A DNA stretch of 40,563 nucleotides from a virus. Below, in pieces: positions 2,199 to 28,699 of the stretch (position 1 is its first letter; every line of letters starts with the position of its first letter). The notes beneath the pieces were generated by a model. It was not told the DNA's origin. It worked only from the letters and a program-made list of their open reading frames with translations, and did not search any database. The stretch lies in the IMG/VR virus record IMGVR_UViG_3300011442_000007, one strand, 5' to 3'. Made by a program: the position numbers and the translations under genes.

Positions 2199-2569
2199 TG
2201 GACGGCGGACCAGTTCAGGGCGGATCGAATCCGTACATGCCGATGTCTGGAGCCGGGAGGTTCATGGGGCCCGGAATGACCCCCTCTACCTTTCAGCCGC
2301 GAACCTATCAACCCCAGACGGTACCGAGCTATCAAGGGCTTCTGAGCCAGGTTAGGCCCCGCGAACAAGCCGGCGGCCCTGGAGGACTCCTGGCGATGGA
2401 GTACGGCTCAGGTCCGGGGTCGGGTCCGGGTGTTGGTGGAATCGGAAGTGACGGCCCTGGGCCTGCTGGGATTGACGGTGGGGGCGCCGCTGCTTCGGTT
2501 GGCGACTCGGGTGTCAGCGCTGGCGCTGCGGCTGCTGATGGTGGTGGCGGGAGCGGAGGCGGGAAATAA
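2195..2569 (+). CDS. Gly/Pro-rich low-complexity virion-module protein (124 aa)
   Basis: ATGATG start overlapping the upstream TGA. TAATG coupling to the next gene. Confidence 0.5.
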   Translation: MMDGGPVQGGSNPYMPMSGAGRFMGPGMTPSTFQPRTYQPQTVPSYQGLLSQVRPREQAGGPGGLLAMEYGSGPGSGPGVGGIGSDGPGPAGIDGGGAAASVGDSGVSAGAAAADGGGGSGGGK

Positions 2570-3708
2570 TGGCCGGCTTGCTCGACGGACTAATGTCCGG
2601 TCAATTCACCGACGACCCCCAGCAGAATCAAGCGATTCAGCGGGGAATCCTGAACTTCGGACTCCAGTTGATGCAGACCCGTGGTCGGCGTTTAGGTCCG
2701 GGGTTGGGTCAAGCTGGCGTAGCTGGTATCCAAGGCTTCAACGACCTGAAGCAGGAGCAGTTCCGGGATCAGCTTCGCAAGCAGCAAGGCGAGGAATACA
2801 CCCGCCGGAAGATGCTGAACGCCAGAGAAGACACGCTAGCAAATCTTCCGAGCCAGTTCATCAAACCAGACCAGCAGGGAAACAATCCCTCCGCGTTCAC
2901 TCCGGGGATGAGTGACCTCCCGGGTCTTTCAAAAGCGTACATGAGCGCACCTGGTGGGTTGCAGACAGGACTGGCTCTACAGAGCGCGCTCCAGAAGCAG
3001 GAACCGACTCTGCACGAGTTCAAACAAGGGTCAACTTACGGCACATTCGAGGGCGGCAGAGTCAGGCCGCTACTGTCTGTGCCATCCGCAGAAAAGCCAG
3101 ACACCGTCCCATCGGCGATCAAAGAGTACAACTTTGCTAGAGAGCAAGGATACAAAGGATCGTTCGAGCAATGGGATCGTGAGCGTAGAAAGGCCGGCGC
3201 TTCTCAGGTATCAGTTAGCACCGGAGAAAAAGGGTTCAAGAACGAACTCGCTTTGAAGGGTGACTTTAAGTCCGAGCCGATCTACAAAGACTACCAAGAC
3301 ATGCAGTCTGCGTACAAACAGATCAAGGCCGGTATCGCGCAGGGAACACCAATCGGTGACGTGGCGACAGCAACGAAGATCATGAAACTACTTGACCCGG
3401 GGTCTGTGGTCCGAGAGTCGGAACTCGGTATTGCGATGGCCGCTGGGGGGCGCATGGATCGCTTGCAGAACTTCGTTCAGATGCAACTCAAAGGCGAGAA
3501 GCTCACCCCGACGATGCGTCAGGAGTTCGGCAAACTCGCGGATGAACTGTATGAGGCCGCAGGGCAGGCATACAACGTCAAACGGTCCGAGTATGAGGGA
3601 ATCGGTAAACGGTATGGGCTGGACACCACGAACCTAGGTGCTCCGCACAAATCATCCCGTTCATCTTCTGTTCGTGACCAAGCGGATGCAATCCTTCGGG
3701 GTGAGTGA
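2569..3708 (+). CDS. Putative internal virion/ejection protein (379 aa)
   Basis: ORF track. Translationally coupled at both ends. Position between tail hub and fibre genes. Confidence 0.6.
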   Translation: MAGLLDGLMSGQFTDDPQQNQAIQRGILNFGLQLMQTRGRRLGPGLGQAGVAGIQGFNDLKQEQFRDQLRKQQGEEYTRRKMLNAREDTLANLPSQFIKPDQQGNNPSAFTPGMSDLPGLSKAYMSAPGGLQTGLALQSALQKQEPTLHEFKQGSTYGTFEGGRVRPLLSVPSAEKPDTVPSAIKEYNFAREQGYKGSFEQWDRERRKAGASQVSVSTGEKGFKNELALKGDFKSEPIYKDYQDMQSAYKQIKAGIAQGTPIGDVATATKIMKLLDPGSVVRESELGIAMAAGGRMDRLQNFVQMQLKGEKLTPTMRQEFGKLADELYEAAGQAYNVKRSEYEGIGKRYGLDTTNLGAPHKSSRSSSVRDQADAILRGE

Positions 3709-5297
3709 TGGCGTCCGCTGACGAATACGCCGAGTGGATCGTAAAGAATCAGGCCAAGAAAGGCACGCCTGAATTCGATACGGTTGCCAAAGCCTATGAG
3801 GAAGCCAAAGCAGAGACTCCACAGAAGGGGTGGGAAGGATCATCGAATCAGGGCGGTCCGAGTGCGGCAATCAGGATGCTGCGCAACATCCCCGGTTCTG
3901 CACTTCGGTTCGGCAAAGGCATCGCAGAGGCAGTGACGAGCCCGGTGCAAACAGGAAAAGCAGCATTGGACGCTGTCGCTGGTGGGCTTCGCAATCTCAC
4001 TCCCGCGCCTATCCGAAACGTCATCGACACACTCGACCCGAATCCAGAAGCTGCACAGCGTGCGACTGGTGTAGCGGATCAGATGGGCCAGTTCTACAAA
4101 GACCGCTACGGCGGTTTGGATAACCTCAAGAAAACCGTTGTGGAAGACCCCGTAGGGGCAGCTGCTGACCTATCGACAGTCCTAGGTGTCGGTGGTGCTC
4201 TGGCCCCTGGAAAGATGGGCCAAGCGCTGAACGTTGCCTCCAAGTACACCAATCCTCTGAGCGTGATTCCTCCTGTCGTCAAAGGAACAGGTGCGCTAGC
4301 AAAGCACACGCTCGGGATGGTCACAGGAGCCGGCGCGGAATCTGCGGCTCAGGCTTTTGGGTCTGGAAGGTATGTAAAGCCTGAATTCCTCGCAAACCTC
4401 AAAGGCGAGGTTCCGATTTCAGGAATCATCGATGAAGCCAAGCATGGACTGGAAAACATGCGGCTCCAGAAATCAGCCGACTACCGAGCCAACATGGCTA
4501 GCGTGTCTGGAGACAAAACCGTATTGAGCTTCAAAGGCATCGAGAATGCTGTAGACAACGCCTCGGACATGGTCACCTACAAAGGACAGGTGAAGAACGC
4601 CAAAGCTGCCGAAGCCGTCAAGGACATGGCGAACGAAGTTACCAAGTGGAAACTTCTGAAGCCTGATGAGTTCCACACCCCAGAGGGTCTAGATGCGCTG
4701 AAGCAGAAGCTCGGCGGGATTCTCGAAGCGATCCCGTACGAGCAAAAGACCGCTCGACTCGCTGCGGGGAAGATCTACAACTCCGTCAAAGACGAGATCC
4801 AGAAGCAAGCTCCTGCCTACGCAAAGACGATGGAGGACTACACCAAAGCATCAGAGCAGATCACCGAAGTCGAGAAAGCGTTTTCGCTCGGGAACAAGGC
4901 ATCCCAGGACACAGCAGTCCGAAAACTTCAGTCCCTGATGCGCAACAACGTTCACTCGAACTACGGGAACAGGCTTGATCTTGCGAAGCAACTTGAGTCT
5001 CAGGGCGGGGTTGATCTCATGCCATCCATTGCAGGGCAAGCGATGAACTCGTGGACTCCACGGGGTTTGGTTGGTCAAGCCGGAAGCTACGGTACAGGAT
5101 TGGCTGCGCTGATGACACAGAACCCTGTAGGGCTTGGGCTTCTACCGCTCACGAGCCCTAAAGCCGTTGGACTGGGCTCCTACGGTGCTGGGCGCGTGTT
5201 CGGTGTTGGCGAAAGAGGGGCCGCGTTGCTTGGCCTGACTCCTGAAAAGGCGCGTCTCGCAGGACTTCTCGGGTATCAGTTGGATCAGGAGCGCTAA
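3705..5297 (+). CDS. Putative internal virion/ejection protein (530 aa, Ala/Gly-rich)
   Basis: ORF track. ATGA coupling. Largest protein of the internal-protein run. Confidence 0.6.
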   Translation: MMASADEYAEWIVKNQAKKGTPEFDTVAKAYEEAKAETPQKGWEGSSNQGGPSAAIRMLRNIPGSALRFGKGIAEAVTSPVQTGKAALDAVAGGLRNLTPAPIRNVIDTLDPNPEAAQRATGVADQMGQFYKDRYGGLDNLKKTVVEDPVGAAADLSTVLGVGGALAPGKMGQALNVASKYTNPLSVIPPVVKGTGALAKHTLGMVTGAGAESAAQAFGSGRYVKPEFLANLKGEVPISGIIDEAKHGLENMRLQKSADYRANMASVSGDKTVLSFKGIENAVDNASDMVTYKGQVKNAKAAEAVKDMANEVTKWKLLKPDEFHTPEGLDALKQKLGGILEAIPYEQKTARLAAGKIYNSVKDEIQKQAPAYAKTMEDYTKASEQITEVEKAFSLGNKASQDTAVRKLQSLMRNNVHSNYGNRLDLAKQLESQGGVDLMPSIAGQAMNSWTPRGLVGQAGSYGTGLAALMTQNPVGLGLLPLTSPKAVGLGSYGAGRVFGVGERGAALLGLTPEKARLAGLLGYQLDQER

Positions 5298-9763: not shown

Positions 9764-10076
9764 CATCGACACAGCAGCAACCCCCCTGGCCTTGGACAAG
9801 CTCAAAGCGCAGGAATATCGCGACGCCCTCAAGGATGAGAAAGCGCACCGTACCGCAATGCGCCAGATCGCCCAGGAGCAGGCGGCGCTCAACATCGACA
9901 CAGGTCAGGCGATCACGGCTGACACCATGCCGGAGTTCAAGCGGGAGGTGATCTTGGCCCTGATCCCGAAGTACATGACCACCAGCACGAACACCACGCC
10001 TGCAGGAGCAGCGTCCGATGCGGTGGCGGACTGCATGCGGCTCAAGGCGGCCCTTGACGAGATTCTGAAGTTGTGA
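9753..10076 (+). CDS. Hypothetical protein (107 aa)
   Basis: ORF track. 11-nt overlap with the upstream gene. Confidence 0.5.
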   Translation: MDTDIDTAATPLALDKLKAQEYRDALKDEKAHRTAMRQIAQEQAALNIDTGQAITADTMPEFKREVILALIPKYMTTSTNTTPAGAASDAVADCMRLKAALDEILKL

Positions 10077-10255
10077 AACCCGAGCGGGCTAGCCTGTGGA
10101 AGGTCGAGCGGCCTGTGCAGCAGGCTCGCAGATGGCCCATCGGTTACCCTCCAGACTTGGTAACACCCATCGAAACACTCAGGGATGCGCTGTCGCACCA
10201 GACGGCACTTGCCGAGAGTCTGTGGCGGCAGTACATGCTCAGGAGGGCAGCGTGA
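10073..10255 (+). CDS. Hypothetical protein (60 aa)
   Basis: ORF track. GTGA coupling at both ends. Confidence 0.4.
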   Translation: MKPERASLWKVERPVQQARRWPIGYPPDLVTPIETLRDALSHQTALAESLWRQYMLRRAA

Positions 10256-10455
10256 CCCCTGACGGCTGGGCCATCTTCTACGGTCACAACCTGCGTACAT
10301 TTACGTGGGACTTGAGTCGTCTAGATCGCCTATCCCAGAGTCTTCATGGACTCATAGTCCCAATGGCTTACATCCTGACAGACGTAACCCCAGAGATGCA
10401 AAGGCTGATTCAGGAGCACCGGACTGATGATCGGTCTACGGTGCCGCTGCGATGA
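10252..10455 (+). CDS. Hypothetical protein (67 aa)
   Basis: In-frame GTG at 10252 overlapping the upstream TGA. Part of ORF 10096..10455. Confidence 0.4.
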   Translation: MTPDGWAIFYGHNLRTFTWDLSRLDRLSQSLHGLIVPMAYILTDVTPEMQRLIQEHRTDDRSTVPLR

Positions 10456-10700
10456 AGTACACGAAGATGATTGAACCATCGGCTACGGAGTGGCCCGATT
10501 GGATCGCCCCGAAGCATCGCGGTTACCGGATGGCATGTTGCGACTGTGGGCTCGTGCACGACTTGGCTTTCGCAGTTGCGAAAGTGACTCGCTATACGAA
10601 AGCTGGATTCAAATATAAGGTTGTCAGCGGCCATCGTGTTCTGATGACTGCCAAGCGCAACAATCGGGCTACGGCAGCGAAGCGTAGGAACAAGAAGTGA
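10452..10700 (+). CDS. Hypothetical protein with a basic C-terminus (82 aa)
   Basis: ORF track. ATGA coupling. Confidence 0.5.
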   Translation: MKYTKMIEPSATEWPDWIAPKHRGYRMACCDCGLVHDLAFAVAKVTRYTKAGFKYKVVSGHRVLMTAKRNNRATAAKRRNKK

Positions 10701-11737
10701 TATCCGAGCGTTGTTTAGCGCTCATCAAGGAATTCGAGGGCCTGCGCCTCCAAGCGTACCCTGATCCTGCTTCCGGTGGTGAACCGTGGACCATCGGATA
10801 CGGGCACACGGGAGGTGTCAGACAGGGCGACGTTTGCACGCAGGAACAGGCTGACGCATGGTTAAGGGAAGACGCGGAAACAGCCTCTAGAGCCGTTCTA
10901 CGCCACTGCGTGCCCATGCTCACGCAGAACCAGCTTGATGCGCTAACCTCATTCGTCTTCAACCTCGGGGAAGGCAACTTCGCCAGTTCCACCCTGCTCA
11001 AGAAGAGCAACGCTCAGGACTGGGCCGGAGCTAGAGAGGAGTTCGCAAGATGGAACCATGCGGCCGGCAAAGAGATGCCAGGTCTTACACGGCGCCGTGC
11101 CGAAGAAGCGGCATTGTTCGGTGGCTCACCAGATGAGCCAGTTACTCAGGAGAAACCCGTGCTGCCACTACTCCCATTACTGATCCCCCTCGCCTCAAGT
11201 CTCATCGATGCCTTCTCACCACTAGCTAGGGAGAAGATCACGAAAGAGATGGGCCGGCATACCGACAAACCTGAGGTAGCCGAGCAGATCGCCACCGGGA
11301 TCATCGAAACCGTCAAAACGCTTACTAGCCAATCAGACCCGATTCAAGCGGTGGCCCAAGCTCGGAATGATCCTGCGATCATGGCCCAGGTCGAATCCAA
11401 TGCACTTGATACGCTCGACAGGCTCGTGGGGGTCGTGGAGCGAGTCAACAAGTTCGAGCGGGAAGATATCGACTCCGCACGGAGATACAACGCAGAGGAA
11501 CCGCTGTTCCTCGACACCCCATGGCTGAAGCTGAAGTTCATTCATATTCTGTCCCTAGTCTTTGTCACGTTCAGTGCGTGGTTCGTCAGCACCAAGTGGG
11601 ACTCGCTTACTGCTGAACTCCGTGGCGCAGTCATCACCCTGATGGTGATTGCGGGATGGAATGGGGTCAGGGATTACTGGATGAGCAGCAGCGCTGGGAG
11701 CACGCTCAAGACGCAACTATTGAACCGGAAGGATTAG
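10697..11737 (+). CDS. GH24 (T4/P22-type) lysozyme with a roughly 190-aa C-terminal extension carrying two predicted TM helices
   Basis: The N-terminal 150 aa read LIKEFEGLRLQAYPDPASGGEPWTIGYGHT...NQLDALTSFVFNLGEGNF...RRRAEEAALF. This gives a catalytic Glu in EFEG and the GH24 motif order. The C-terminus has FIHILSLVFVTFSAWFVST and AVITLMVIAGWNGV. Confidence 0.8.
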   Translation: MISERCLALIKEFEGLRLQAYPDPASGGEPWTIGYGHTGGVRQGDVCTQEQADAWLREDAETASRAVLRHCVPMLTQNQLDALTSFVFNLGEGNFASSTLLKKSNAQDWAGAREEFARWNHAAGKEMPGLTRRRAEEAALFGGSPDEPVTQEKPVLPLLPLLIPLASSLIDAFSPLAREKITKEMGRHTDKPEVAEQIATGIIETVKTLTSQSDPIQAVAQARNDPAIMAQVESNALDTLDRLVGVVERVNKFEREDIDSARRYNAEEPLFLDTPWLKLKFIHILSLVFVTFSAWFVSTKWDSLTAELRGAVITLMVIAGWNGVRDYWMSSSAGSTLKTQLLNRKD

Positions 11738-11739
11738 GC

Positions 11740-12027
11740 TCATCGCGGCTCATCTGACTGTTGGGGGTGGGCCTTGAGCCAATCCGGTGCGCCATCGAAC
11801 GACCCACCATCAATGCCAGCGAGCGCATCCATGAGTGCCGAGATTTTGTCGCCCCGACCAGTCACAGATCCATGTGCGCCCGCATAGGCGCAGACCTCTT
11901 GCGCTGCGAAATACAGCTGGGCCCACGCCACCGGCGCATCTAGCTTGGGTGCAGCGGCGGCTGCGATGTACAACTTCGTGCCATCACAAAACGGGCACGG
12001 CAGCAGAGTCTTGGGGATCTCGCTCAT
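11740..12027 (-). CDS. Hypothetical protein with an N-terminal CPFC zinc-ribbon-like motif (weakly Lar-like)
   Basis: ORF track. LLPCPFCDGTKL at the N-terminus. GGAG lies 8 nt upstream of the ATG. Confidence 0.5.
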   Translation of the reverse strand: MSEIPKTLLPCPFCDGTKLYIAAAAAPKLDAPVAWAQLYFAAQEVCAYAGAHGSVTGRGDKISALMDALAGIDGGSFDGAPDWLKAHPQQSDEPR

Positions 12028-12284
12028 CTCTCTGGCTCCTGCGTGTTGGGTGCAGCAGAATCCTCGTCAAGCCAGCGAACAATTCGAGCGAGCGCTACGG
12101 CTGGAGGAATACGCTGGTTTGACTCCGCTGCGCAGCACCTGAGGCTTCGGCGTAGGCGCGCATTTGGTTGGCGGTGTAGCCGGTCCATGTCGTTTCGATC
12201 TCTCTAATGAACGGGCTACCTGTCGCCACTAGGCGTTTGATCTACGCAGGCTCAGGCAGTGCAAGCAGGTCTAGGCGCGTGCGT

Positions 12285-13340
12285 TTACGCGCCGACGATG
12301 GGCGCCAGCATGTCGAGGGCTTGGGTCTTCACCTCATGCCCCTTGCCGAACAAAGCGGAATCGAACCGGCTATCAGCGGTGCGCCCCAATTGGTGGTCGA
12401 CGTGTTCGGTAATCGCGTTGAACAAGCCCCACCGGGTGCCCGCGCTTCCGAGGTGATCGGCGCCGCGTGCCTTGCCGTTGAAAAGGTCCAGCACCTTGGG
12501 CACGCTGCGCTGCTCGCGCACGGCGGCATCCGATGCGAGCGGCCGCGTGAGCAGCTGCGCGAATTCGCTTCCGTCAATCGTGCCGCCCATCGTGACCGGT
12601 TCGGCCGGATTGATGCGCGCGGGTTGGCCGAACAGCTGGCGCAGAATGTCGCGCGCTTCGTTCACGTGGCAGGGGGTTTCGGCCATGCGGCGCGCGCGCT
12701 CCATGAACTGGTCGAAGGATTCGCGCGCCACGCCCACGGCCGATTTGGCCGCATCGGCATCGAAGACGGAGCGATGCGATACGCGCACCCGCTTGCCGGC
12801 CGTGTCGGCCAGCGCGAGGCGCAGCGTGTTTGCGCACACCACGCGGATTGCAGTCATGGCCGCTACGGTGGCCAACGATCCGTCAAGGGATGTCGCGAGC
12901 AGCAAATTGCCCCGCACGCGATCCCCGGGGGTCACGTCCCCCTCGGTGTGGTTGCGTGCGAGTGCCCAAATCTTGCGCCCGCCCTTGAGCGATCCGGCCG
13001 TGTGGATCGTCCATTGCCAGCTGTCGGCCATGTCTCGGAAGAACTCAAGCACTTCGGCCGGTTGCACGGTTTTGTACCCGTCACCGACCACGGACAGCGG
13101 AGCGCCCGTGTCGTTGCGATACAGCACTTTCTTTTCCGGGTAGGCCATGGTGCGGCCGCCTTCGCCCATCTGGTACTGCACCGGGGCTTCGATTGCCTGC
13201 CAGTCGAGCCCGGCGGCCGTTTGCCATTCTTCGATGGTGGCCCCCTCGGTCACGCGTTGCCCGAGCCCATGCCATGGGGTGGTGCCCGTGAATGCCATCT
13301 CGGCAAAACCGTTTGCACGTTGGGTGATGTCGTGTGCCAT
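12285..13340 (-). CDS. DUF932-family phage/plasmid-like protein
   Basis: MAHDITQRANGFAEMAFTGTTPWHGLG... is the typical DUF932 N-terminus. GGAG lies 8 nt upstream of the ATG at 13340. The ORF-track maximum start is 13367. Confidence 0.65.
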   Translation of the reverse strand: MAHDITQRANGFAEMAFTGTTPWHGLGQRVTEGATIEEWQTAAGLDWQAIEAPVQYQMGEGGRTMAYPEKKVLYRNDTGAPLSVVGDGYKTVQPAEVLEFFRDMADSWQWTIHTAGSLKGGRKIWALARNHTEGDVTPGDRVRGNLLLATSLDGSLATVAAMTAIRVVCANTLRLALADTAGKRVRVSHRSVFDADAAKSAVGVARESFDQFMERARRMAETPCHVNEARDILRQLFGQPARINPAEPVTMGGTIDGSEFAQLLTRPLASDAAVREQRSVPKVLDLFNGKARGADHLGSAGTRWGLFNAITEHVDHQLGRTADSRFDSALFGKGHEVKTQALDMLAPIVGA

Positions 13341-13422
13341 GTTGCAAGCTCCATAGAGCGCCGGCATCCGGCCGGCATCGGGTGTGCGTCAATCGCACGC
13401 CATAGCCCCACGCGTAGGTCGT

Positions 13423-13932
13423 TCATATCCCCTCCAACACCGGAGCCACAGGCTCCAAAGCGGCGGCGATGCCAGGGGCGCTGAACGTGAGCATTTGGTC
13501 GGCGGTGTATGCTGCCTCCAATTCGTGATCCCGAAACTTGACGCCTCGTTGGCTTCCGAAGGCGTCGATCAGTTCAAGCAATTCCGTCATTTCAGCTATT
13601 GTCATTTGACTTGTCCGATCCCCCAAGACAACGAACCCGGTCCCCTCGATGTTTGGGACGACGCGCTGTTTGCGAAGTGATGCTGTCAACATGGCTTTCC
13701 AGTCATCCGCATCGAGCGTCATCCCGTGCCACGGAACCTGCGCGGCAATATCTCCGAGGCGCCACCAGAGCAAACGGTTCTGCGCGAGTGAACGCGTGTC
13801 GGCACGCACATCGATATGCAGCCGGTGCCCAGCAAGAAGGAACGGCTTTGCAGCGCGCCATATCGAGCCTAGCAGCGTGTGCGCCTGGGTCGGCTCGTAC
13901 AGCACGGAGCGGATGCGCTCGAAGCTCACCAT
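13423..13932 (-). CDS. ninB: NinB-family recombination protein
   Basis: RSLAQNRLLWWRLGDIAAQVPWHGMTLDADDWKAMLTASLRKQRVVPNIEGTGFVVLG...ELLELIDAFGSQRGVKF aligns by eye with lambda NinB (...RSLDQNRKLWACLGDVSRQVEWHGRWLDAESWK...). Confidence 0.8.
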   Translation of the reverse strand: MVSFERIRSVLYEPTQAHTLLGSIWRAAKPFLLAGHRLHIDVRADTRSLAQNRLLWWRLGDIAAQVPWHGMTLDADDWKAMLTASLRKQRVVPNIEGTGFVVLGDRTSQMTIAEMTELLELIDAFGSQRGVKFRDHELEAAYTADQMLTFSAPGIAAALEPVAPVLEGI

Positions 13933-14198
13933 TCATCCTTTGCTCTGAACTCTGCATAAGTCATCGACTCGCCAACAGCGCCGACGCCAGTAAGGATGAA
14001 CGATTCTCGGCTACGACTTACCGTGCGAATGCCTCGTTTCTGCTTGCGGACAGTGAATTCCTCGTAGCTGAACTGCGCCTTGCCGCTGCCGTGGCACCCA
14101 TGGCAGATTACGGCCGTCCCTGGAGGTTCTAAGAATCCGCTATAGAGGCCGGTACCGCGGCAGGATGGGCATTGAATGGTGATTGTCTTAGATGACAC
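13926..14198 (-). CDS. DnaJ-type CxxCxGxG zinc-finger protein (90 aa)
   Basis: CPSCRGTG and CHGCHGSG motifs. Confidence 0.55.
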   Translation of the reverse strand: MSSKTITIQCPSCRGTGLYSGFLEPPGTAVICHGCHGSGKAQFSYEEFTVRKQKRGIRTVSRSRESFILTGVGAVGESMTYAEFRAKDEW

Positions 14199-14361
14199 GG
14201 ATCAACCCCTCTCGCGCTAACTGCCCCCACGTCATGCGGATTGCCTCGTCCAGAGCATGTACGCGCTTGTCCTCCCACCGCTGAAGCTGATGCACGTCGG
14301 GCTGTCTATCTTGAAGGGGTCGGCCATGAAGTTTCCACACGTTATTCCGGAGAGCCATCAT
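14188..14361 (-). CDS. Hypothetical protein (57 aa)
   Basis: ATGA-type coupling with the stop of the upstream gene at 14358. Within ORF 14188..14415. Confidence 0.4.
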   Translation of the reverse strand: MMALRNNVWKLHGRPLQDRQPDVHQLQRWEDKRVHALDEAIRMTWGQLAREGLIRVI

Positions 14362-14978
14362 TTCTTCTCCATTGAACTGATAGCCGAGCGGGTCTTCGAG
14401 TCCAGCAGATACCACAGCGCCTTTTTGAGTTCGGTCGGGTCTTCATCAGGCCAGTTGTCGTAAGCCTCGCTGAATACGGCTTTGACGCCATCGCCGTTCA
14501 TGTGCTTTGTCTGCACCACGATCCTTTGCGAAAGCGCCCGGAGCGAGTCCTGAATCTCGGGCTGGAGATTGGCGAATGAGGCAGTCGTCAAGTCGCTCGC
14601 GGAGGCGCCTATTGAGGTGGTAGCTGGCTCACCTTTGGCCCAGCTGATGGCCCTAGCCACTTCATCGGCGGAAGCGAACTCGGTGCCTCCTAGGCCCAAC
14701 GCAGCCAATGCGCGCCCGATGGCGGAAGTCTCCGCATTCTCAAGCGCCGAGGTCTTGTTGATCTCGGATGCCTTGCGGTATTCCTCGGCGTGTCCGGTAG
14801 CGATGACTCGTCCGGATTCGTCAGCGATGGTCGCCAGCATCACCACGCAATCCAGGTCGCGGTGCAGGATCGTCGTCACCAGTGAATAGCTCGGGAATGC
14901 CTCCCGAAAACCATGCACCCGAAGCGCGACGGTCTGATATTCCTTGCCTCGGATGTTGACGATTCCTGGCTTGTTCAT
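14358..14978 (-). CDS. Putative ssDNA-annealing/recombination protein (ERF/Sak-like; family uncertain)
   Basis: The pattern KEYQTVALRVHGFREAFP...ATIADESGRVIATGHAEE...NKTSALENAETSAIGRALAALGLGG is typical of phage annealing-type proteins. It neighbours ninB. AGGAG lies upstream. Confidence 0.45.
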   Translation of the reverse strand: MNKPGIVNIRGKEYQTVALRVHGFREAFPSYSLVTTILHRDLDCVVMLATIADESGRVIATGHAEEYRKASEINKTSALENAETSAIGRALAALGLGGTEFASADEVARAISWAKGEPATTSIGASASDLTTASFANLQPEIQDSLRALSQRIVVQTKHMNGDGVKAVFSEAYDNWPDEDPTELKKALWYLLDSKTRSAISSMEKK

Positions 14979-15026
14979 TTTCCCATTGCTCCTGAAGCTG
15001 TAGACCGACCGTTTGTTGCCATTGCA

Positions 15027-15182
15027 TCACCGCTGACTCCTAAACCAACGCGCGACTCGCTGCCAAAATGTTGGCTTGGTCGGTATGGTGTGCCAGTACG
15101 CTCGCTCATCCGAGAAAGCCTCAGAGATAGAACGTTTTGTGCGCTGCTTGTGGTGGGCGGTAAGGATGTCATTACTGAACAC
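15027..15182 (-). CDS. Hypothetical small protein (51 aa; frame choice tentative)
   Basis: Two overlapping minus-strand ORFs exist here. This frame has clearly higher third-position G+C by hand count (about 32 of 51) than the alternative 14975..15172 (about 27 of 64). Confidence 0.3.
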   Translation of the reverse strand: MFSNDILTAHHKQRTKRSISEAFSDERAYWHTIPTKPTFWQRVARWFRSQR

Positions 15183-15396
15183 GATTAACCCCCAAGTTAC
15201 GTGCGAAAGGAGTGCCCCTGCGCAGCGAATTCTCAAGCGAGTTGTATTTGACGCCTAGGCGCTCGGCTGCCTCAACCAGCGTCATCCGCTGCCCGTTAAT
15301 GATGACAATCGCGTTGCGTCGCGTATTCCGCGCCTGTTCAGTGAGAGTGGCCCTGCGCACTGTGGGGTGTTTGTCCTCATTGAGCATCAGCCCCAT
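15172..15396 (-). CDS. Small protein, possibly DNA-binding (74 aa)
   Basis: Internal ATG (MGLMLNEDKHP...) of ORF 15172..15576. The segment MTLVEAAERLGVKYNSLENSLRRG is HTH-like. Confidence 0.45.
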   Translation of the reverse strand: MGLMLNEDKHPTVRRATLTEQARNTRRNAIVIINGQRMTLVEAAERLGVKYNSLENSLRRGTPFARNLGVNRVQ

Positions 15397-15536
15397 GACG
15401 GCCCCATGAACTTGTAAGCCACCGCAGCCACCACCATGATGCAGGCGAGCCAGATGGCAACATCCGGCAGGATAGACCGGCGGCGCCTCTTGACCCACGC
15501 ACCGGGGTGCATGTGCCCATGGAAAACGACTCTCAT
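15387..15536 (-). CDS. Small membrane protein (49 aa)
   Basis: ATGA coupling at 15533..15536. TM segment VAIWLACIMVVAAVAY preceded by RRRR. Confidence 0.4.
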   Translation of the reverse strand: MRVVFHGHMHPGAWVKRRRRSILPDVAIWLACIMVVAAVAYKFMGPSWG

Positions 15537-15715
15537 TGCTGCCTCCGAATGTGGTTGATAGCTGCCTGTGCCCCATCCGCGAATGCGAGTTGGCACAGCA
15601 TCGTCAGCAGTTCGTGCACTCGCTCCTGCGACACGTCGTTGTCATCGAGCACCACGACGGCTTGCGCGATCCGCTCTTGAGTGGCGGCAGAGATAGCGAA
15701 CGGAAGGTCGGTCAC
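15533..15715 (-). CDS. Hypothetical protein (60 aa)
   Basis: GTGA coupling with the upstream stop at 15712. Confidence 0.4.
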   Translation of the reverse strand: MTDLPFAISAATQERIAQAVVVLDDNDVSQERVHELLTMLCQLAFADGAQAAINHIRRQQ

Positions 15716-16002
15716 TTCTGCCTCCCAAGGTACCGTGCCTTGAGCGCATCGAGCGCCAGCAGCCGGATGCCCGTGTCCTCGTCCTTCAGCGCCAGGCACA
15801 GCAACTCATCCGGCCGGCAAGGACCGCCTACCCCCTCCGCGAGCCGCCACGCGACGTGTTGGAGAAAGTACGGGTCAACCGTCTCCTGCCCATAGGCTCC
15901 GTCGTTGAGCCAGTTGCAGAAGTCAGCCATGCACAGGAACGGAGATTCCGGGTCCTCGGGGTTATCGTGCGCGGGGTCGCCGCTGTAGGCTAGGACGCTC
16001 AT
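15712..16002 (-). CDS. Hypothetical acidic protein (96 aa)
   Basis: ORF track. Abuts the upstream gene. Confidence 0.5.
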   Translation of the reverse strand: MSVLAYSGDPAHDNPEDPESPFLCMADFCNWLNDGAYGQETVDPYFLQHVAWRLAEGVGGPCRPDELLCLALKDEDTGIRLLALDALKARYLGRQK

Positions 16003-16350
16003 TCAGAACTCCTGTGCACCAAGTGCCTTAGCGATCCGCACGGCGCTTTCGCCATCGGTTGCCCACTGACCCACACGGGTGACCAGATCAACGATCGCCT
16101 CGTCCTCGGTCCTGCCCCAGCCGTGGCGGCCCACATCCTCGTCATCGCCCTCGAACAGCGCGCGCCAGTCATGGTCGCGCACGGGGATCGGGGGGTATTC
16201 GTGGATCGTGACGAGCTTTTGGCCTCGACGCTCGGTCAAATTGCCCATGTAGTCGTCAAAAACACCGTCTCGCTCGTGTGTCATGATTCCCTTTCTGAAC
16301 TGCGCGTCAATGTTGGGGTTGTCTGCGATGGATTGGAGCAGGGGGTTCAT
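16003..16350 (-). CDS. Hypothetical protein (115 aa)
   Basis: ORF track. ATGA coupling with the pentapeptide-repeat gene. Confidence 0.5.
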   Translation of the reverse strand: MNPLLQSIADNPNIDAQFRKGIMTHERDGVFDDYMGNLTERRGQKLVTIHEYPPIPVRDHDWRALFEGDDEDVGRHGWGRTEDEAIVDLVTRVGQWATDGESAVRIAKALGAQEF

Positions 16351-17225
16351 TTCGACGCCGCACGTTCCGCGTCCCGCTTCGCGTGCTCGGCAATTTCGCT
16401 GACGTATTTGCGATCAGTCAGCCACGACAGCACCTCGTCGGTGCCGCGATAGAACATCTTGGCGGCGATGGGAGCGGTCACAACCCCGGCAAGGACCGGC
16501 TCCATATTACGCACCTTCGGATCGGTGGAACAAACTTGCAACCAGCCAGCGAGGCAGTGCGTCGTTTCGCACAGCATTTCCTCGGCGCAGGTGCGGTTCC
16601 TCCATTGCTCATCGACGTGCCAGTGGTCCATTTCGAGCCTGGCCTTGTTGTCGAGAATGATTTCGCGCACGCGGTCGAGGTTCGCGATTGACTGCTCTGT
16701 GGTAGCTGTGCCGGCATCGCTCAGGTTGGCATCGCTCAGGTTGGCATAGCTCAGGTTGGCATCGCTCAGGTTTGCATAGCGCAGGTTGGCATCGCTCAGG
16801 TTGGCATAGCTCAGGTTGGCATAGCGCAGGTTGGCATCGCGCAGGTTGGCACCGCGCAGGTTGGCATCGCTCAGGTTGGCACCGCGCAGGTTTGCATCGC
16901 TCAGGTTGGCACCGCGCAGGTTTGCATAGTGCAGGTCGGCATCGCGCAGGTTTGCATCGCTCAGGTTGGCACCGCGCAGGTTTGCATAGTGCAGGTCGGC
17001 ATCGCGCAGGTTTGCATCGCTCAGGTTGGCATCGCGCAGGTTGGCATCGCGCAGGTTGGCACCGCGCAGGTTGGCATCGCTCAGGTTGGCATAGCTCAGG
17101 TTGGCACGTTTCGCTGTCGCTTGCTGCAGCGCATAACGAGTCCGTAGACCGCTCGCAACATCATTCGGCACGGCGCACTCAAACAGCACGGCGCCAGTGA
17201 ATCGGTGTTTGATCTGGTGAAGCAT
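16347..17225 (-). CDS. Pentapeptide-repeat protein (26 consecutive A[N/D]L[S/R/H]x units) with a Cys/Trp-containing C-terminal domain
   Basis: Translation ANLSYANLSDANLRGANLRDANLRD... GGAGA RBS 5 nt upstream of the ATG. The N-terminal IKHRFTGAVLFE cap is typical of this class. Confidence 0.85.
   Translation of the reverse strand: MLHQIKHRFTGAVLFECAVPNDVASGLRTRYALQQATAKRANLSYANLSDANLRGANLRDANLRDANLSDANLRDADLHYANLRGANLSDANLRDADLHYANLRGANLSDANLRGANLSDANLRGANLRDANLRYANLSYANLSDANLRYANLSDANLSYANLSDANLSDAGTATTEQSIANLDRVREIILDNKARLEMDHWHVDEQWRNRTCAEEMLCETTHCLAGWLQVCSTDPKVRNMEPVLAGVVTAPIAAKMFYRGTDEVLSWLTDRKYVSEIAEHAKRDAERAASK
16716..17105. repeat. 15-bp-period tandem array (26 units) encoding the pentapeptide repeats; contains a 60-bp unit duplicated at 59/60 identity (16921..16980 and 16981..17040)
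   Basis: Read directly: reiteration of ggcatcgctcaggtt and its variants. The sequence lines at 16921 and 16981 differ at one base. Confidence 0.9.
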
Positions 17226-17337
17226 TCGTTCTCCCTGTAGTTGCCGGTTACCTAATCCGGCTCTGACCTATCGCGTCAGAGGCTTACAGCGCCGAACTTC
17301 GCTATCGGTGCGCCCGTGCATCCTGCGGGGGAAGGGT

Positions 17338-17496
17338 TCAGGCGTAAGGATTGAATACCTCGCCAGCACCGTTGTCGCCCTTCGGGAACGGCCAGGCGGC
17401 AGCAGGGCTGAGCTTGGTGCCGTCACCGTTGGCCTTGGCCGCCGGCTTGCCCTCGCTGATCAGGTCGCGCTTCTCGACCTCGGGCGGCCGAAACAT
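17338..17496 (-). CDS. Unlisted small ORF (52 aa: MFRPPEVEKRDLISEGKPAAKANGDGTKLSPAAAWPFPKGDNGAGEVFNPYA)
   Basis: Hand translation. About 42 of 51 codons end in G or C, which is a strong coding signal. It overlaps the last 37 nt of the upstream repeat-protein ORF. No clear SD. Confidence 0.45.
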   Translation of the reverse strand: MFRPPEVEKRDLISEGKPAAKANGDGTKLSPAAAWPFPKGDNGAGEVFNPYA

Positions 17497-18497
17497 GACA
17501 GTCGATCTCGCGGCTCTTGAGCTTGGCCATCTTGCCGAAGGCCGATTCGCTCCGCGGCTTCGTCGAGCCGCTCGTTGATCATGCGCAGGTACAGCTCGTG
17601 CAGTTCTGCCTGCACCGCGTCGCGGTGCTGTATGAACACCGCGTCGGCCTTGGCGCGCGCTTCTTCGTAGGTGGCGCAGCCTTTCGCTGCCTCGTAAGCG
17701 GCGGCCGCGCCAGCGGCCGCCGAGGCGTCCCAGGCGTCCCAGGCGTCCCAGGCGGCCCAGGCGGCCCTGGCGTCCCTGGCGGCCCTGGCGTCCCTGGCGG
17801 CCCTGGCGTCCCTGGCGTCCCAGGCGTCCCAGGCGTCCCAGGCGGCCCTGGCGTCCCTGGGGTCCCAGGCGTCCCTGGCGTCCCTGGCGTCCCAGGCGGC
17901 CCAGGCGTCCCTGGCGGCCCTGGCGTCCCAGGCGTCCCAGGCGGCCCTGGCGTCCCAGGCGGCCCTGGCGTCCCTGGCGGCCCAGGCGTCCCTGGCGGCC
18001 CAGGCGGCGCTGGCGGCCCAGGCGGCGCTGGCGGCGCTGGCGGCGCCTAACGCCTTGTCAAGTGCGGCTGTGCGCTCGGCTTCGCCGAGCTCCGCCGTGA
18101 TCGGGGCCAGCGCACGCAGCTTCGCCGCGTGCTCGGCAAGCTCTGGCACGAGCTCGAGCCACATCGGGGCGTGGACGCGCCACAACCAGTCGAGCGCCAT
18201 GAATGCGCGCTTGAGCTGCAGTTCAGGCCCTTGGTAGGTGCCGACGAGCAGCGGTATGTAGCGCTTGAGCTGTTGCCGCTCATCGTCGGGCAGGCGGTCG
18301 TTCCAGCTGCGGCCGAAGGCGGCGAGCACGGGGTCGACGCATTGCGGCTCGTCGCTGAATTTCTCGCCGGCCAGCATGCTCACGACCTCGAGCAGGCAGT
18401 GGCCCTGCTTGGCGCTCTTGTGCTGGCCTTCGTCAAGGTGCAGCGCGGCGATCTGTTCCTCGGTGAGGCCAGCGGCGCGCGCTTCAGCTGTTGTCAT
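17460..18497 (-). CDS. First gene of the leftward operon: globular N-terminal domain plus a 36-unit [W/R/S]-[D/A]-A tripeptide-repeat region
   Basis: ORF track. GGAG lies 6 nt upstream of the ATG. Non-repetitive N-terminus (…GHCLLEVVSMLAGEKFSDEPQCVDPVLAAFGRSWNDRLP…). Repeat region AAWDARDARAAWDAWDAWDARDARAARDA. The 3' end is uncertain. Confidence 0.7.
   Translation of the reverse strand: MTTAEARAAGLTEEQIAALHLDEGQHKSAKQGHCLLEVVSMLAGEKFSDEPQCVDPVLAAFGRSWNDRLPDDERQQLKRYIPLLVGTYQGPELQLKRAFMALDWLWRVHAPMWLELVPELAEHAAKLRALAPITAELGEAERTAALDKALGAASAASAAWAASAAWAARDAWAARDARAAWDARAAWDAWDARAARDAWAAWDARDARDAWDPRDARAAWDAWDAWDARDARAARDARAARDARAAWAAWDAWDAWDASAAAGAAAAYEAAKGCATYEEARAKADAVFIQHRDAVQAELHELYLRMINERLDEAAERIGLRQDGQAQEPRDRLSCFGRPRSRSAT
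17724..18047. repeat. Tandem array of 36 x 9 bp, consensus GGCG[T/G]CCC[A/T]
   Basis: Counted unit by unit. Variation is almost confined to positions 5 and 9 of the unit. The last five units are GGCGGCG[C/T] variants. Confidence 0.95.
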
Positions 18498-18605
18498 GTT
18501 GTGCTCCGGGTTGCGTGTTGCGATGTAGAGACTGTGCGCCGATTGGCACGATGCGTCAAGCGCTTTCTACAAAGACCACATGCGTTAGTGTGCCATTAGT
18601 CACGC

Positions 18606-18633
18606 TTGACAAGCGAGCGCCATTCGGCATACT
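18606..18633 (+). promoter_or_regulatory. Sigma70-like promoter candidate: TTGACA, 16-nt spacer, CATACT, with the ATG of the HTH gene 7 nt after the -10 (leaderless or near-leaderless)
   Basis: Perfect -35 hexamer at 18606..18611. The -10 matches 4 of 6 at 18628..18633. No SD before the ATG at 18641. Confidence 0.45.
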
Positions 18634-18640
18634 TAGCGGA

Positions 18641-18820
18641 ATGATGACCTACAAGCAACTTCAGAAAGCGGTGCGCGACTTGCCGAATATCAGCGAGTTC
18701 TGCGCCAAGCACAAGCTACCGCTGCGCACTGTAATGCGTGTCAAGGCTGGAGGGTTCCCGAGGGCGGGAACGATGCTGCAGCTAGAGGCCGCTCTGAGTT
18801 CTGAAGCAGCCAAGCAATGA
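18641..18820 (+). CDS. Small HTH protein (59 aa), Cro-like early regulator candidate
   Basis: MMTYKQLQKAVRDLPNISEFCAKHKLPLRTVMRVKAGG has a helix-turn-helix pattern. It is the first gene of the rightward operon, divergent from the leftward operon. Confidence 0.55.
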   Translation: MMTYKQLQKAVRDLPNISEFCAKHKLPLRTVMRVKAGGFPRAGTMLQLEAALSSEAAKQ

Positions 18821-21706: not shown

Positions 21707-22471
21707 TTGGTGTACGCCAAACTATTCACGAGCATCTACCAAGGCACGCTGCGCGGTAACTCGCATGGCTTGCTGGTCTTCACGAACCTGCTGGCGCACG
21801 CTGATTCTGCTGGCGTGGTTGATATCCACCCAAAGGCCATAGCCGACGAGGTTGGCTTACCTGAGGATGCAGTTAGGACCGCTTTGACGATGCTCGAGTC
21901 GCCAGACGCAGAGTCGCGCACACCAGAACTTGACGGGCGCAGGATTGTGCGGACAGACGAGCATCGAGCTTGGGGCTGGCGTATCGTGAATCACGCCAAG
22001 TACAGAGCAATCCGCAACGAGGAAGACCGCAGGGAACAGAACCGGCTATCGCAGCAGCGTTGGCGTGAGAAGAATAAGCAAAGTAAGCCGCCGTCAGCCG
22101 CCGTCAGCCGCGAGTGTGCAGAATCAGCCCATACAGAAGCAGAAGCAGAAGCAGAAGCAGAAGCAGAAGCAAGAAAGAAAGAAAGCGGATCGGCGCAAGC
22201 GCCGCGTCCGCCCGCCGCCTTCACTGGTGACAACATCGAAGACATAAAGCCAAGAGCCATAGTCCTCCTTGCCGATACTTGGGAGCTGCCGGAGCGGTGG
22301 GGATTCGATGCTGAAGCATTGGGGTGGAAGCCGGCCGACGTCCTTCAGCAGGCCGAGAAATTCCGTCAGTATTGGACTCGTGGCAAGGGAGCCGGAACCA
22401 GGCGCAGCGTTAAGGGATGGTCGCAATCTTGGTCGAATTGGCTGTCAAAGGCAGCGGAGATGAAGAGATGA
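21707..22471 (+). CDS. Putative replication initiation/organiser protein (winged-helix N-terminus, EA-repeat linker, Trp-rich C-terminus)
   Basis: AKLFTSIYQGTLRG...LLVFTNLLAHADSAGVVDIHPKAIADEVGLPEDAVRTAL resembles phage replisome-organiser N-domains. TTG/GTG start at 21707/21710. Confidence 0.5.
   Translation: MVYAKLFTSIYQGTLRGNSHGLLVFTNLLAHADSAGVVDIHPKAIADEVGLPEDAVRTALTMLESPDAESRTPELDGRRIVRTDEHRAWGWRIVNHAKYRAIRNEEDRREQNRLSQQRWREKNKQSKPPSAAVSRECAESAHTEAEAEAEAEAEARKKESGSAQAPRPPAAFTGDNIEDIKPRAIVLLADTWELPERWGFDAEALGWKPADVLQQAEKFRQYWTRGKGAGTRRSVKGWSQSWSNWLSKAAEMKR
22134..22185. repeat. (CAGAAG)x6 microsatellite followed by (AAAG)n, a C-plus-purine tract inside the replication gene
   Basis: Read directly. 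Encodes EAEAEAEAEAEARKKE. Preceded by a 10-bp direct repeat, agccgccgtc x2.6, at 22086..22112. Confidence 0.9.
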
Positions 22472-26283: not shown

Positions 26284-26481
26284 ATGAGCGCAGCCCTCTT
26301 CGCCAAGATGCACGAGCAGAACCTGCGAATCCTCTCGCTTGAACGCCAGGTGGAAGAATTGGCAAGACAAGTGAACGCACACTTGCTAGAATCTCTCAAC
26401 GCTGAACGCGCCGTCTCCATTCCGAGACGTGGAAGACCGCGTAAGGTTGTGGGGGATCATGGACATTCTGGCGGCAATTGA
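26284..26481 (+). CDS. Hypothetical small coiled-coil protein (65 aa)
   Basis: ORF track. Lies between terL and the portal gene. Confidence 0.45.
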   Translation: MSAALFAKMHEQNLRILSLERQVEELARQVNAHLLESLNAERAVSIPRRGRPRKVVGDHGHSGGN

Positions 26482-28699
26482 GTACCAGGAAGACCTAGCT
26501 TCTAGTCGGGGCGACCTCGACACCGAGCGATCCGAAGCCCTCGACCGATATCTCGGCCGTCCCTACGGGGATGAGCAGCAAGGCCGCTCTCAGGTCGTGA
26601 TGCGCGATGTGTCCGACACCATCGAGTGGATCAAGCCCTCCCTGCTAAAGATCTTCGCCTCAGGCGATGAGGTAGTCCGCTTCGACCCTACGGGGCCGGA
26701 GGACGAGGAGCAGGCCCAGCAGGAAACGGACTACGTCAACTACGTGGTGAACCAGAAGAATAACGGGTTCATCATCTTCCACGACTGGTTCCACGACGCC
26801 CTGCTCCAGAAAACAGGCTATGTCCTGGTTCAATACCTCACCGAGAAGCAGCAAAGCCGGGAGACGTACAAAGGTCTTACGGAAGACGAGATGGCCCTAC
26901 TGGCTAAGGACGGAGTGGAAATCCTCCAGCACTCAGCCTACCCCATCACATCGGGAGGAATCGGGCCCCAAGGGGAGCAAATCCCCCCGGTGATGCTGCA
27001 TGACATCGTCGCCCAGCAGACGAAAGAGTACGGATGTGAGAAGCTGTTCAACATCCCCCCCGAGCAGGTTCTAGTCGCTCATGACTGGCCCAATGTTGAC
27101 TTCGAGGATTGCCCGTTCCTGGAAATCATCGACTACCCGACCATCTCTGCTCTGAGGCAGAACGGGTATGAAGTCGAGGACGATATCTCTGACGATTCGT
27201 CCGACATCAACGAGATGGATACCCGGATTCGTCGCTCCGTGGAGGGTGACGACCTGTTCGAGCCTGGGGATGATGGAGGTTCTGATCCATCGATGCGCCG
27301 TGTCAAGTGTCGGTATGCATGGATGATGATCGATGTAGACGAGGATGGGATCGCGGAGCTTAGAAAGTTTGTCATCGTCGGGTCCACGATCCTCAACGGG
27401 GATGAGGGCGAAGAGACAGACCTGATTCCCGTAGCGGCGATCACCCCGATTCGACAGCCACATGAACACTACGGCCTGAGCCTGGATGACGTTGTCCAAG
27501 ACCTTCAGCGGATCAGGACCGTCCTGGTTCGAGGATTCCTGGACAACATGTACGTCACCAACAACAGCCGGCACGCTGTTAATGCAAACCTCGTAAACCT
27601 GGATGACCTTCTGGTCACTCGTCCTAACGGCGTGGTCCGTGTCAACGGCGACCCGAATCAGGCAATCGCACCAATCATCACGCAACCGAACGGTCCCGCG
27701 ATTCTCTCTGCGGTCGAGTACATCGACTCCATCCGGGAATCCAGAACTGGTGTCACTCGGTACAACCAGGGTCTAGATGCCAACTCGCTGAACAAGACAG
27801 CGACCGGGATCACACAGATCATGACCGCTGCGCAGCAGCGCATCGAGATGATCGCCCGCATCTTCGCAGAGACAGGGGTCAAGTCCCTGATGCTCATTGT
27901 TCATGCGATGGCGATCAGGAACGGCTCATCTCAGGAGAAGATGAAGCTGCGGAACAAGTGGGTTCCGGTCAATCCTCAGGAGTGGAAGACCCGGAAGAAT
28001 CTCACCGTCGCTGTTGGTCTAGGCACAGGTAACAAAGATCAGATGCTCCAGCACCTGATGATGATCCTGACCGCTCAGAAGGAAGCGCTCCCTCTAGGAC
28101 TGACAGGACCGAAGGAAATCTACAACGCCCTCGCCAGGCTCACTCAGAACGCCGGATTCAAGCAAACCGAGGAGTTCTGGAAAGACCCCGGGGACAATGC
28201 TCAATTGCCTGCTCCTCCAAACCCTGAAGCGATCAAAGCTCAAGCAGAGGCTCAAAAGACCCAAGCCCAACTCCAAGCCGACCAGCAAAAGACGCAGGCG
28301 CAACTCCAGGCGGATGCGCAGAAGTTCCAAGCCCAAGCGGCGATTGACCAGGAGCGGATGGCGTTTGAAGCGTCGGAGAAGGAGAAGGACCGACAGTTGC
28401 AACTCCAGATCGTTCGCGAGCAAGAGGCGACAAAGCTCGCCATCGAGAACGCGAAACTGGAGCATCAATCGAACACGATGGCCCAGTCTCAATCCTTCGA
28501 GGCAGAGAAGCTAGGGGCTACATTTGCCAGGGAAGACGCCAAAGAGGCCCAGGTTCAGGAAAAGACCCAGGAGAAGGACGACGGCATGTCGGAACTCCTA
28601 AAAGGTGTTCAAGACGCCCTCGGGATGCTGGCAAAAGAGATGGGACGCCCGAAGAAGCTAATTCGGGGGCCGGACGGCAAAGCGATTGGTGTTCAATGA
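26459..28699 (+). CDS. Portal protein (746 aa from the ATG at 26459)
   Basis: Size, position after terL, the N-terminal motif RYLGRPYGDEQQGRSQVVMRDVSDTIEWIKPSLLKIF, and a C-terminal Q/A-rich coiled coil. Confidence 0.85.
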   Translation: MDILAAIEYQEDLASSRGDLDTERSEALDRYLGRPYGDEQQGRSQVVMRDVSDTIEWIKPSLLKIFASGDEVVRFDPTGPEDEEQAQQETDYVNYVVNQKNNGFIIFHDWFHDALLQKTGYVLVQYLTEKQQSRETYKGLTEDEMALLAKDGVEILQHSAYPITSGGIGPQGEQIPPVMLHDIVAQQTKEYGCEKLFNIPPEQVLVAHDWPNVDFEDCPFLEIIDYPTISALRQNGYEVEDDISDDSSDINEMDTRIRRSVEGDDLFEPGDDGGSDPSMRRVKCRYAWMMIDVDEDGIAELRKFVIVGSTILNGDEGEETDLIPVAAITPIRQPHEHYGLSLDDVVQDLQRIRTVLVRGFLDNMYVTNNSRHAVNANLVNLDDLLVTRPNGVVRVNGDPNQAIAPIITQPNGPAILSAVEYIDSIRESRTGVTRYNQGLDANSLNKTATGITQIMTAAQQRIEMIARIFAETGVKSLMLIVHAMAIRNGSSQEKMKLRNKWVPVNPQEWKTRKNLTVAVGLGTGNKDQMLQHLMMILTAQKEALPLGLTGPKEIYNALARLTQNAGFKQTEEFWKDPGDNAQLPAPPNPEAIKAQAEAQKTQAQLQADQQKTQAQLQADAQKFQAQAAIDQERMAFEASEKEKDRQLQLQIVREQEATKLAIENAKLEHQSNTMAQSQSFEAEKLGATFAREDAKEAQVQEKTQEKDDGMSELLKGVQDALGMLAKEMGRPKKLIRGPDGKAIGVQ

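Follow-up and report, generated by a model that had tools for sequence, protein, structure and literature searches.

The gene at 17460..18497 (minus strand) of a 40,563-nt phage genome (IMG/VR record IMGVR_UViG_3300011442_000007), referred to here in its entirety as the window, contains an array of 36 near-identical 9-bp units at 17724..18047 that encodes residues 151-258 of a 345-aa protein. Taken as a whole, the evidence makes it reasonably probable that this array is an in-frame minisatellite within a minus-strand gene, that its product is helical, that its units evolve in concert and that it represents a module shared by many phage proteins. Elements of this general kind are already known: minisatellites that lie in frame, evolve in concert and code for a repetitive structural segment. 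According to the reading we favor, the product would be an alanine-backbone alpha-helical segment in which each unit contributes one fixed Ala and two variable residues, each of the latter switched by one nucleotide (TGG/AGG and GAC/GCC), and the array would project as a long helical hairpin between a globular N-terminal domain and a C-terminal helix. Slippage as well as unequal or ectopic recombination would add, remove and reshuffle units and homogenize the silent sites, and selection, or recurrent mutation at the two sites, would keep a mixed Trp/Arg and Asp/Ala surface. The same array is common to many unrelated phage and prophage proteins whose N- and C-modules reassort across it, and it would therefore probably also form a frame-preserving recombination junction.

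Cutting 17724..18047 into 9-mers produced exactly 36 head-to-tail units without a single spacer, and Tandem Repeats Finder reported 17724-18042 with a period of 9, 35.4 copies and a score of 393. Both results bear out an earlier reading of the window, made from its letters without database searches, which had described 36 tandem 9-bp units with variation almost confined to positions 5 and 9. The frequent unit types were GGCGTCCCA (ten copies), GGCGTCCCT (nine), GGCGGCCCT (seven) and GGCGGCCCA (five), and the rarer ones GGCGGCGCT (three) as well as GGGGTCCCA and GGCGGCGCC (one each). Across the 36 units position 5 was T in 20 and G in 16, while position 9 was T in 19, A in 16 and C in one. Position 7 was G in four units only (32, 34, 35 and 36), all located at the 18047 end, and the one change at position 3 occurred in unit 16 (17859..17867, minus strand), which is the single unit to encode Trp-Asp-Pro (Pro213). 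The remaining five positions exhibited no variation. The coding-strand unit is [T/A]GG-G[A/C]C-GCC, corresponding to [Trp/Arg]-[Asp/Ala]-Ala, and with the rarer units included the array lies in frame within the minus-strand ORF as [W/R/S/G]-[D/A]-A. A degenerate pattern spanning two units matched 36 times in the window, with 35 of these matches inside the array, versus 0.08 expected from shuffles. Within this 324-bp repeat, which was assembled from metagenomic reads and whose copy number and unit order may hold errors, the order of unit types was statistically indistinguishable from random and the Trp/Arg and Asp/Ala toggles were mutually independent. Recent multi-unit block duplications were not detected in the window array, the longest repeated block comprising four units (P = 0.37).

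The 345-aa protein begins with a conserved N-terminal domain, continues with the repeat array and conserved C-terminal helices and ends in a tail that is not conserved. The N-terminal domain (residues 1-150; 18048..18497, minus strand) has a helical globular part, after which a long helix begins. The post-array segment (residues 259-313; 17559..17723, minus strand), which includes AAYEAAKGCATYEEARAKADAVF and further downstream LHELYLRMINERL, is helical in a high-confidence prediction and is conserved in the family members P0001-P0008 as well as in the family alignment (A1). Homologues terminate shortly past the RMI motif, and the tail (residues 314-345 and the stop codon; 17460..17558, minus strand) is non-conserved and predicted with low confidence. 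The near-invariant residues of the N-terminal domain in the alignment are G24, H26, C34, E37, E45, D49, P51, C53, N66, D67, R74, R97, D103, W104 and R107. We found 231 homologues of the 345-aa protein, and a phmmer search with the 150-aa N-terminal domain retrieved 5,310 clusters at 50% identity (E<=1e-3; best 2e-72), 2,354 of them at E<=1e-10. The window protein belongs to this uncurated N-domain family over approximately 135 aa, including the motif C-x2-E…G-E-x3-D-x-P-x-C…N-D. One family member (P0043, 491 aa) is a fusion consisting of an N-terminal DUF7822, a truncated family N-domain, an array and a C-terminal helix.

Searches of Pfam, NCBIfam and PADLOC returned no match for the window protein, and together with PHROGs they provided no informative family for either this protein or 73 of its relatives. 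PHROGs contributed one weak match to a family of unknown function (phrog_13065), and PADLOC one chance-level match of a relative to ZorC (E 0.0038). No relative of the N-domain or of the protein was detected in the PDB by sequence profile or by fold (Foldseek, two models), and the Foldseek matches in BFVD were limited to uncharacterised phage proteins. By tblastn, the N-domain was present in two of 50,697 phages, where it is annotated as 'hypothetical'. Searching proteins with the array by itself yielded five matches and was largely suppressed by the composition correction of HMMER.

Arrays differ considerably within the family. Among the N-domain relatives, 32 of 143 possessed little or no array, and array length ranged from 0 to 151 aa. 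Some family arrays are of other composition (Ala/Asp only, Ala/Val/Asp, or Ala/Arg/Leu/Asp), so the identity of the Trp/Arg residues is not essential to the family. The strict 3-residue period emphasized in the sequence-only reading does not extend to the family either: in a sample picked by the N-domain alone, 83 arrays had a period of 4 (Ala-Ala-[W/R/G]-[D/A]) versus 8 with a period of 3, and period 7 also occurs. The 3-residue unit of the window is a minority variant of the commoner Ala-Ala-[W/R/G]-[D/A] unit.

An AlphaFold run with a 73-sequence alignment, which is unreliable inside the repeats, predicted a helical N-domain (pLDDT >90 for residues 11-140) and, for the array, two long antiparallel helices (139-201 and 214-271), in agreement with the helical conformation proposed previously. 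The pLDDT fell below 50 at 192-213, a low-confidence break that ends at the lone Pro213 produced by the position-3 variant, and was 43-60 in the middle of the array and below 50 at the hairpin tip. The C-terminal helix (277-308) was modeled with confidence (pLDDT about 87-95 for residues 271-310), and the C-terminal tail had a pLDDT of 52-65. A natural homologue with a short array (P0008) reached a pLDDT of 92 and a pTM of 0.85. The array is thus modeled as an all-helical long hairpin that is predicted to project from the N-domain and the C-terminal helix, with a tip of low confidence, and its length can, by the same prediction, change with the rest of the fold undisturbed. The repeat periods of 3, 4 and 7 found among homologues are typical of helical repeats. 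On the basis of the model, the array is most likely a length- and surface-variable helical projection or spacer in which Ala would make the helix and the Trp/Arg and Asp/Ala residues would face outward. Two observations speak against this assignment, as a period of 3 gives no constant Ala face on an alpha-helix and the hairpin tip falls below a pLDDT of 50.

Comparison of family members in clusters of >=90% identity revealed flanks of equal length and arrays that differ by whole units, with array lengths of 90/90/66, 57/69, 19/35/55/123 and 34/50/46 aa in the individual clusters; one pair of the same length differed by a single Asp/Ala toggle. The proposal that copy number and pattern are unstable therefore holds for these relatives, in which the flanks remain constant, and it is from relatives that the array variation is known, the exact protein of the window being absent from the collection and without a close genome. 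A separate example of such divergence was encountered in a prophage-like region of a 2.76-Mb contig (L004), where six tandem family paralogues are arranged in two groups of three (2200..4315 and 10001..12143). Their flanks are near-identical and all six arrays are different, and in four of the six paralogues the best-conserved motif of the N-domain (about residues 13-45) is precisely deleted.

The codons within the arrays follow a pattern of their own. In the core of the window array every Arg is encoded by AGG, every Ala by GCC and every Asp by GAC, unlike in the rest of the gene, and the same uniformity was observed in arrays of relatives whose flanks have diverged by 20-30%. Outside the arrays Arg is encoded by CGC or CGG and Ala codons are mixed, and AGG is not the usual Arg codon of these genes. 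When eight arrays were tabulated, high-frequency polymorphism was restricted to the N of the NGG and GNC codons, in both near 50:50, with a few singletons and a 19:5 Ala/Val (C/T) site in one locus (L009) as the exceptions. Silent positions were invariant within each of these arrays and differed between them (GCC, GCA, GCT or GCG), and in one locus (L017) the matching amino-acid position toggles via another nucleotide (CTT/CGT). When viral contigs were scanned without bias for the peptide pattern in any codons, at least 120 loci were identified, and 156 of 175 arrays were without silent variation. The 44 arrays of at least eight units were written in several codon dialects, all encoding A-[W/R]-[D or E/A] and almost all of them mixed. 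Silent homogeneity within arrays and difference between arrays, combined with polymorphism at the same two positions, points to concerted evolution with rapid unit turnover, the latter because the units are near-identical at the DNA level, and argues that the heterogeneity at the two residue positions is probably maintained and not accidental. These properties correspond to those of a coding minisatellite, since the units are a multiple of 3 in length (36 x 9 bp), silent sites are homogeneous within and different between arrays, and copy number differs between near-identical alleles among the relatives. They differ from those of a phase-variable contingency locus, which is characterized by a unit length not divisible by 3, as units of 9, 12 and 21 nt all keep the reading frame.

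A neutral origin is the alternative that survives best, although we regard it as rather unlikely. It would explain the array as low-complexity expansion, a slippage filler tolerated in a helical linker or hairpin, with a functionless residue pattern and a polymorphism that descends from four ancestral unit types. Such a filler would fit the span of array lengths from 0 to 151 aa with no array in 32 of 143 members, the variation in composition among lineages, the random unit order and the low model confidence in the middle of the array, and inheritance of four unit types shuffled by slippage could account for the two-site heterogeneity without the selection that we propose. However, the same two residues toggle in independent dialects via T/A, T/C, T/G/C or, in L017, CTT/CGT, with silent sites fixed, and a homogenization that erases silent differences should erase the toggles too, unless they are maintained. 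A neutral origin also sits poorly with the finding that nearly all long arrays are mixed and not pure.

The array is not confined to the family of the window protein. Four consecutive units of the window type, searched as exact matches, were present in 30 viral contigs, only two of which belonged to this family; the other carriers included DUF6745, DUF7666, a 'GYKVF…' family, a 'GCAIGC…' family, a DnaJ-CXXC-containing protein and others, and the array was found in at least ten unrelated architectures. Clustering the parts before and after the array separately revealed mosaicism, with one C-module combined with three N-families and one N-family combined with four C-modules. In the clearest chimera (L039) the N-part is 61-67% identical to those of L030, L037, L047 and L051 (E 1e-74 to 1e-79), but behind the array the match is to a different module, the C-module found in the GYKVF family (E 1e-7 to 1e-9); P0123 is another chimera. 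Analysis of family by dialect, which rests on metagenomic viral contigs and partial ORFs, placed the GCC/AGG dialect in seven N-families and several dialects in single families. This sharing of a dialect that includes the non-preferred AGG suggests a transfer of arrays from one gene to another, or recombination between genes by way of their arrays. Two proteins of different N-families (P0059 and P0120) have the same array-exit boundary, '…ARDACFDL…', as would be consistent with exchange through the array.

It is conceivable, and we advance it tentatively, that phage accessory genes share the array as a recombination cassette that preserves the frame, and that it is at the same time a rapidly re-writable helical surface. 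Identical 9-mers or 12-mers would allow a crossover in any unit register to join the N-module of one gene to the C-module of another with the frame intact, which would explain the AGG dialect shared by seven N-families, the chimeras L039 and P0123 and the persistence of the array. The array may be a recombination junction for the swapping of protein parts, but reassortment of modules could happen at any linker, so that the array need not be its cause.

We give far less credence than to the neutral origin to the possibility that the array acts mainly as DNA or RNA, that is as a CCWGG cluster, a G-quadruplex-prone G3N6 tract or a structured RNA, with its coding capacity secondary. Of the 128 CCWGG sites in the window 32 fall within these 324 bp, the T/A toggle is the W of the site, and GGG recurs each 9 nt on the coding strand. 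However, the units of L003 (GCC-GCA-NGG-GNC) are without CCWGG and those of L017 without GGG, RNA folding was no better than for shuffles (z = +0.68), no Rfam match was obtained, and the peptide pattern is kept across codon dialects. The CCWGG/Dcm cluster, the G-quadruplex and RNA structure were rejected as general explanations. The dense CCWGG (Dcm/EcoRII-type) sites are not general to such arrays but might be relevant if the host has a CCWGG-specific system.

Targeted hypermutation of the diversity-generating-retroelement type, writing the two variable positions, appears very improbable: variation limited to two defined nucleotides per unit without silent changes would suit it, but the repeat occurs only once in the window, with no further copy to act as template, no reverse transcriptase was matched among that part of the window ORFs scanned against Pfam, the near-equal toggles are T/A and A/C and not adenine-specific, and the variation lies among units of one array and not between template and target. 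The array was accordingly rejected as a target of such an element.

The reading of the array as part of a minus-strand gene is strengthened by the properties of the gene itself. Its GC content at the three codon positions (GC1/2/3 = 0.75/0.42/0.85) follows the pattern of a real gene, a GGAG is located 7 nt upstream of the ATG, and in hundreds of homologues the array is flanked on either side, in the minus frame, by conserved sequence. With the conserved N-domain and C-terminal helix flanking the array in frame, and thousands of homologues, the earlier assignment of the coding strand to the minus strand is confirmed. It had also been stated that both strands stay open across the array; this is correct, yet uninformative, since stops are absent from the array in every one of its six frames. 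The plus-strand ORF (17517..18050), which the sequence-only reading had described as an elastin- or collagen-like string, is hardly credible as a genuine gene for a (Gly-Val/Gly-Pro)n protein of that type. Its 177 open codons and the Gly at each third residue over 108 aa would speak for it, but no frame of the array contains a stop, antisense frames of the GC-rich homologous genes are often open over the whole gene purely through GC content, the ORF terminates exactly at the array edge, its N-terminal part is antisense of a conserved helix, and conserved domains flank the array on both sides in the minus frame. In relatives with 12-nt units the antisense would read VPCG-like and not Gly-X-Y, and the plus-strand frame is open through composition alone. 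We therefore treat this GVP/GGP string as an antisense shadow ORF and not as a gene.

The window represents a phage genome that encodes a terminase, an SU10-type portal, a lysozyme, a tailspike-like protein, NinB and DUF932 as well as a helicase-family protein (Helicase_C match) and an N6/N4 methylase. No close DNA relative of the window was present among 50,697 INPHARED phages, where only the adjacent pentapeptide array cross-matched, and the nearest genomic relatives point to Burkholderiales hosts. As noted before, the array gene is the first of its block: it is the first ORF of the minus-strand block 12285..18497, leaving leftward from a divergent intergenic region (18498..18640) from which a small ORF leaves rightward at 18641. 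A promoter-like site was located at 18606-18633 in the rightward direction only, and none was found leftward. The same region contains a perfect 6-1-6 inverted repeat (CGCTTG-A-CAAGCG, 18603..18615) that overlaps the rightward TTGACA, and a further CAAGCG half-site at 18557..18562; the arrangement (18553..18615) looks operator-like. Two further repeats were recorded elsewhere in the window, namely a perfect (CAGAAG)x6 at 22134..22171, which encodes (Gln-Lys)6 if in frame with ORF 21707..22471, and a 33-bp tandem repeat at 28253..28336 (2.5 copies, 72% matches), located toward the 3' end of the portal gene (26429..28699).

Homologues on long contigs reside in early regions of phages and prophages beside RecT, YqaJ, RNase_T, DnaB-primase, methylases and NinB, and one is situated in an apparently non-prophage actinobacterial context. 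Neighbor-gene analysis of 19 loci identified no conserved partner gene, and single-protein scans of metagenome and genome contigs yielded few loci. The position of the gene had led to the suggestion of a link to host takeover or anti-defence. Nothing in our analysis supports it: PADLOC, Pfam, NCBIfam and PHROGs were uninformative, the protein corresponds to no PADLOC model or named family of known anti-phage defence or anti-defence proteins, and a conserved partner gene is missing. Whatever part the protein may take in infection, an anti-defence role for this early accessory gene is possible but unsupported.

In-frame coding minisatellites (VNTRs) that evolve through slippage and concerted evolution are exemplified by the repeats of the streptococcal M and alpha-C proteins. 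Alanine-rich type I antifreeze proteins provide another example of such repeats (PMC3855684). The phage array resembles these VNTRs in its near-identical head-to-tail units, a unit length that is a multiple of three, the differences in copy number between alleles, silent sites that are homogeneous within and different between arrays, and an Ala-rich product that is predicted to be helical. It differs in its unit of 3 (or 4) residues, in having exactly two polymorphic positions in every lineage, in belonging to a cytoplasmic, phage-encoded protein and not to a surface antigen, and in its occurrence in many unrelated proteins.

A second comparison is offered by the gene downstream (16347..17225, minus strand), which encodes a pentapeptide-repeat protein (PF00805, 4.5e-56). 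Its array (16713..17106) consists of 26 near-identical 15-bp units encoding A-N-L-[S/R]-[D/G/Y] with variation concentrated at two residues, and the repeat DNA cross-matches pentapeptide genes of Salmonella, Edwardsiella and Bordetella phages with 81-87% identity. Short units with a constant scaffold and two variable positions, near-identical DNA units and a location in phage early regions are common to PF00805 proteins and the array protein. The latter, in contrast, has no PF00805 match and does not fit the A(D/N)LXX profile, its period is 3 versus 5, and its array is predicted to be alpha-helical, whereas PF00805 proteins form a beta-helix.

Single alpha-helix (ER/K) domains and Ala-based antiparallel coiled coils ('Alacoil') represent further systems for comparison. 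They share with the array a long helix (predicted in our case), residues of high helix propensity and possible i/i+3-4 contacts of Arg with Asp and of Trp with Arg, and by analogy to them a spacer of adjustable length is a plausible function. Unlike them, the phage array is composed of Ala/Trp/Arg/Asp and not of Glu/Arg/Lys, shows no heptad and is helical by prediction. TALE units are 33-35 aa long with a defined fold and a proven DNA code; their repeat-variable diresidues resemble the array in presenting two variable residues per constant unit in apparently free order, but with phage units of 3-4 aa this likeness is an analogy only. Plasmodium histidine-rich protein II/III (PF05403; Ala-His-His/Ala-Ala-Asp) likewise consists of Ala-X-X tripeptide tandem repeats, and PF05403 was the only Pfam model that scored at all, with 13-22 bits versus a cut-off of 45.8, a likeness that is compositional only. 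Full-text literature searches with peptide strings and DUF names returned nothing relevant and no description of the tri- or tetrapeptide module, of its two-site polymorphism or of its spread with reassortment.

If the favored reading of a shared in-frame minisatellite is correct, a large block of phage protein 'dark matter', comprising the uncurated family of more than 5,000 clusters, DUF6745, DUF7666 and several unnamed families, would share one hypermutable helical module, and the arrays would provide a compact natural example of concerted evolution together with maintained two-site diversity. They would also be a candidate route by which unrelated phage genes exchange domains in frame. For the handling of phage genomes, such arrays would constitute a source of assembly and annotation errors through repeats that exceed the read length and shadow ORFs that look like collagen, and the length and pattern of the array would offer an experimental handle on what these early proteins do.
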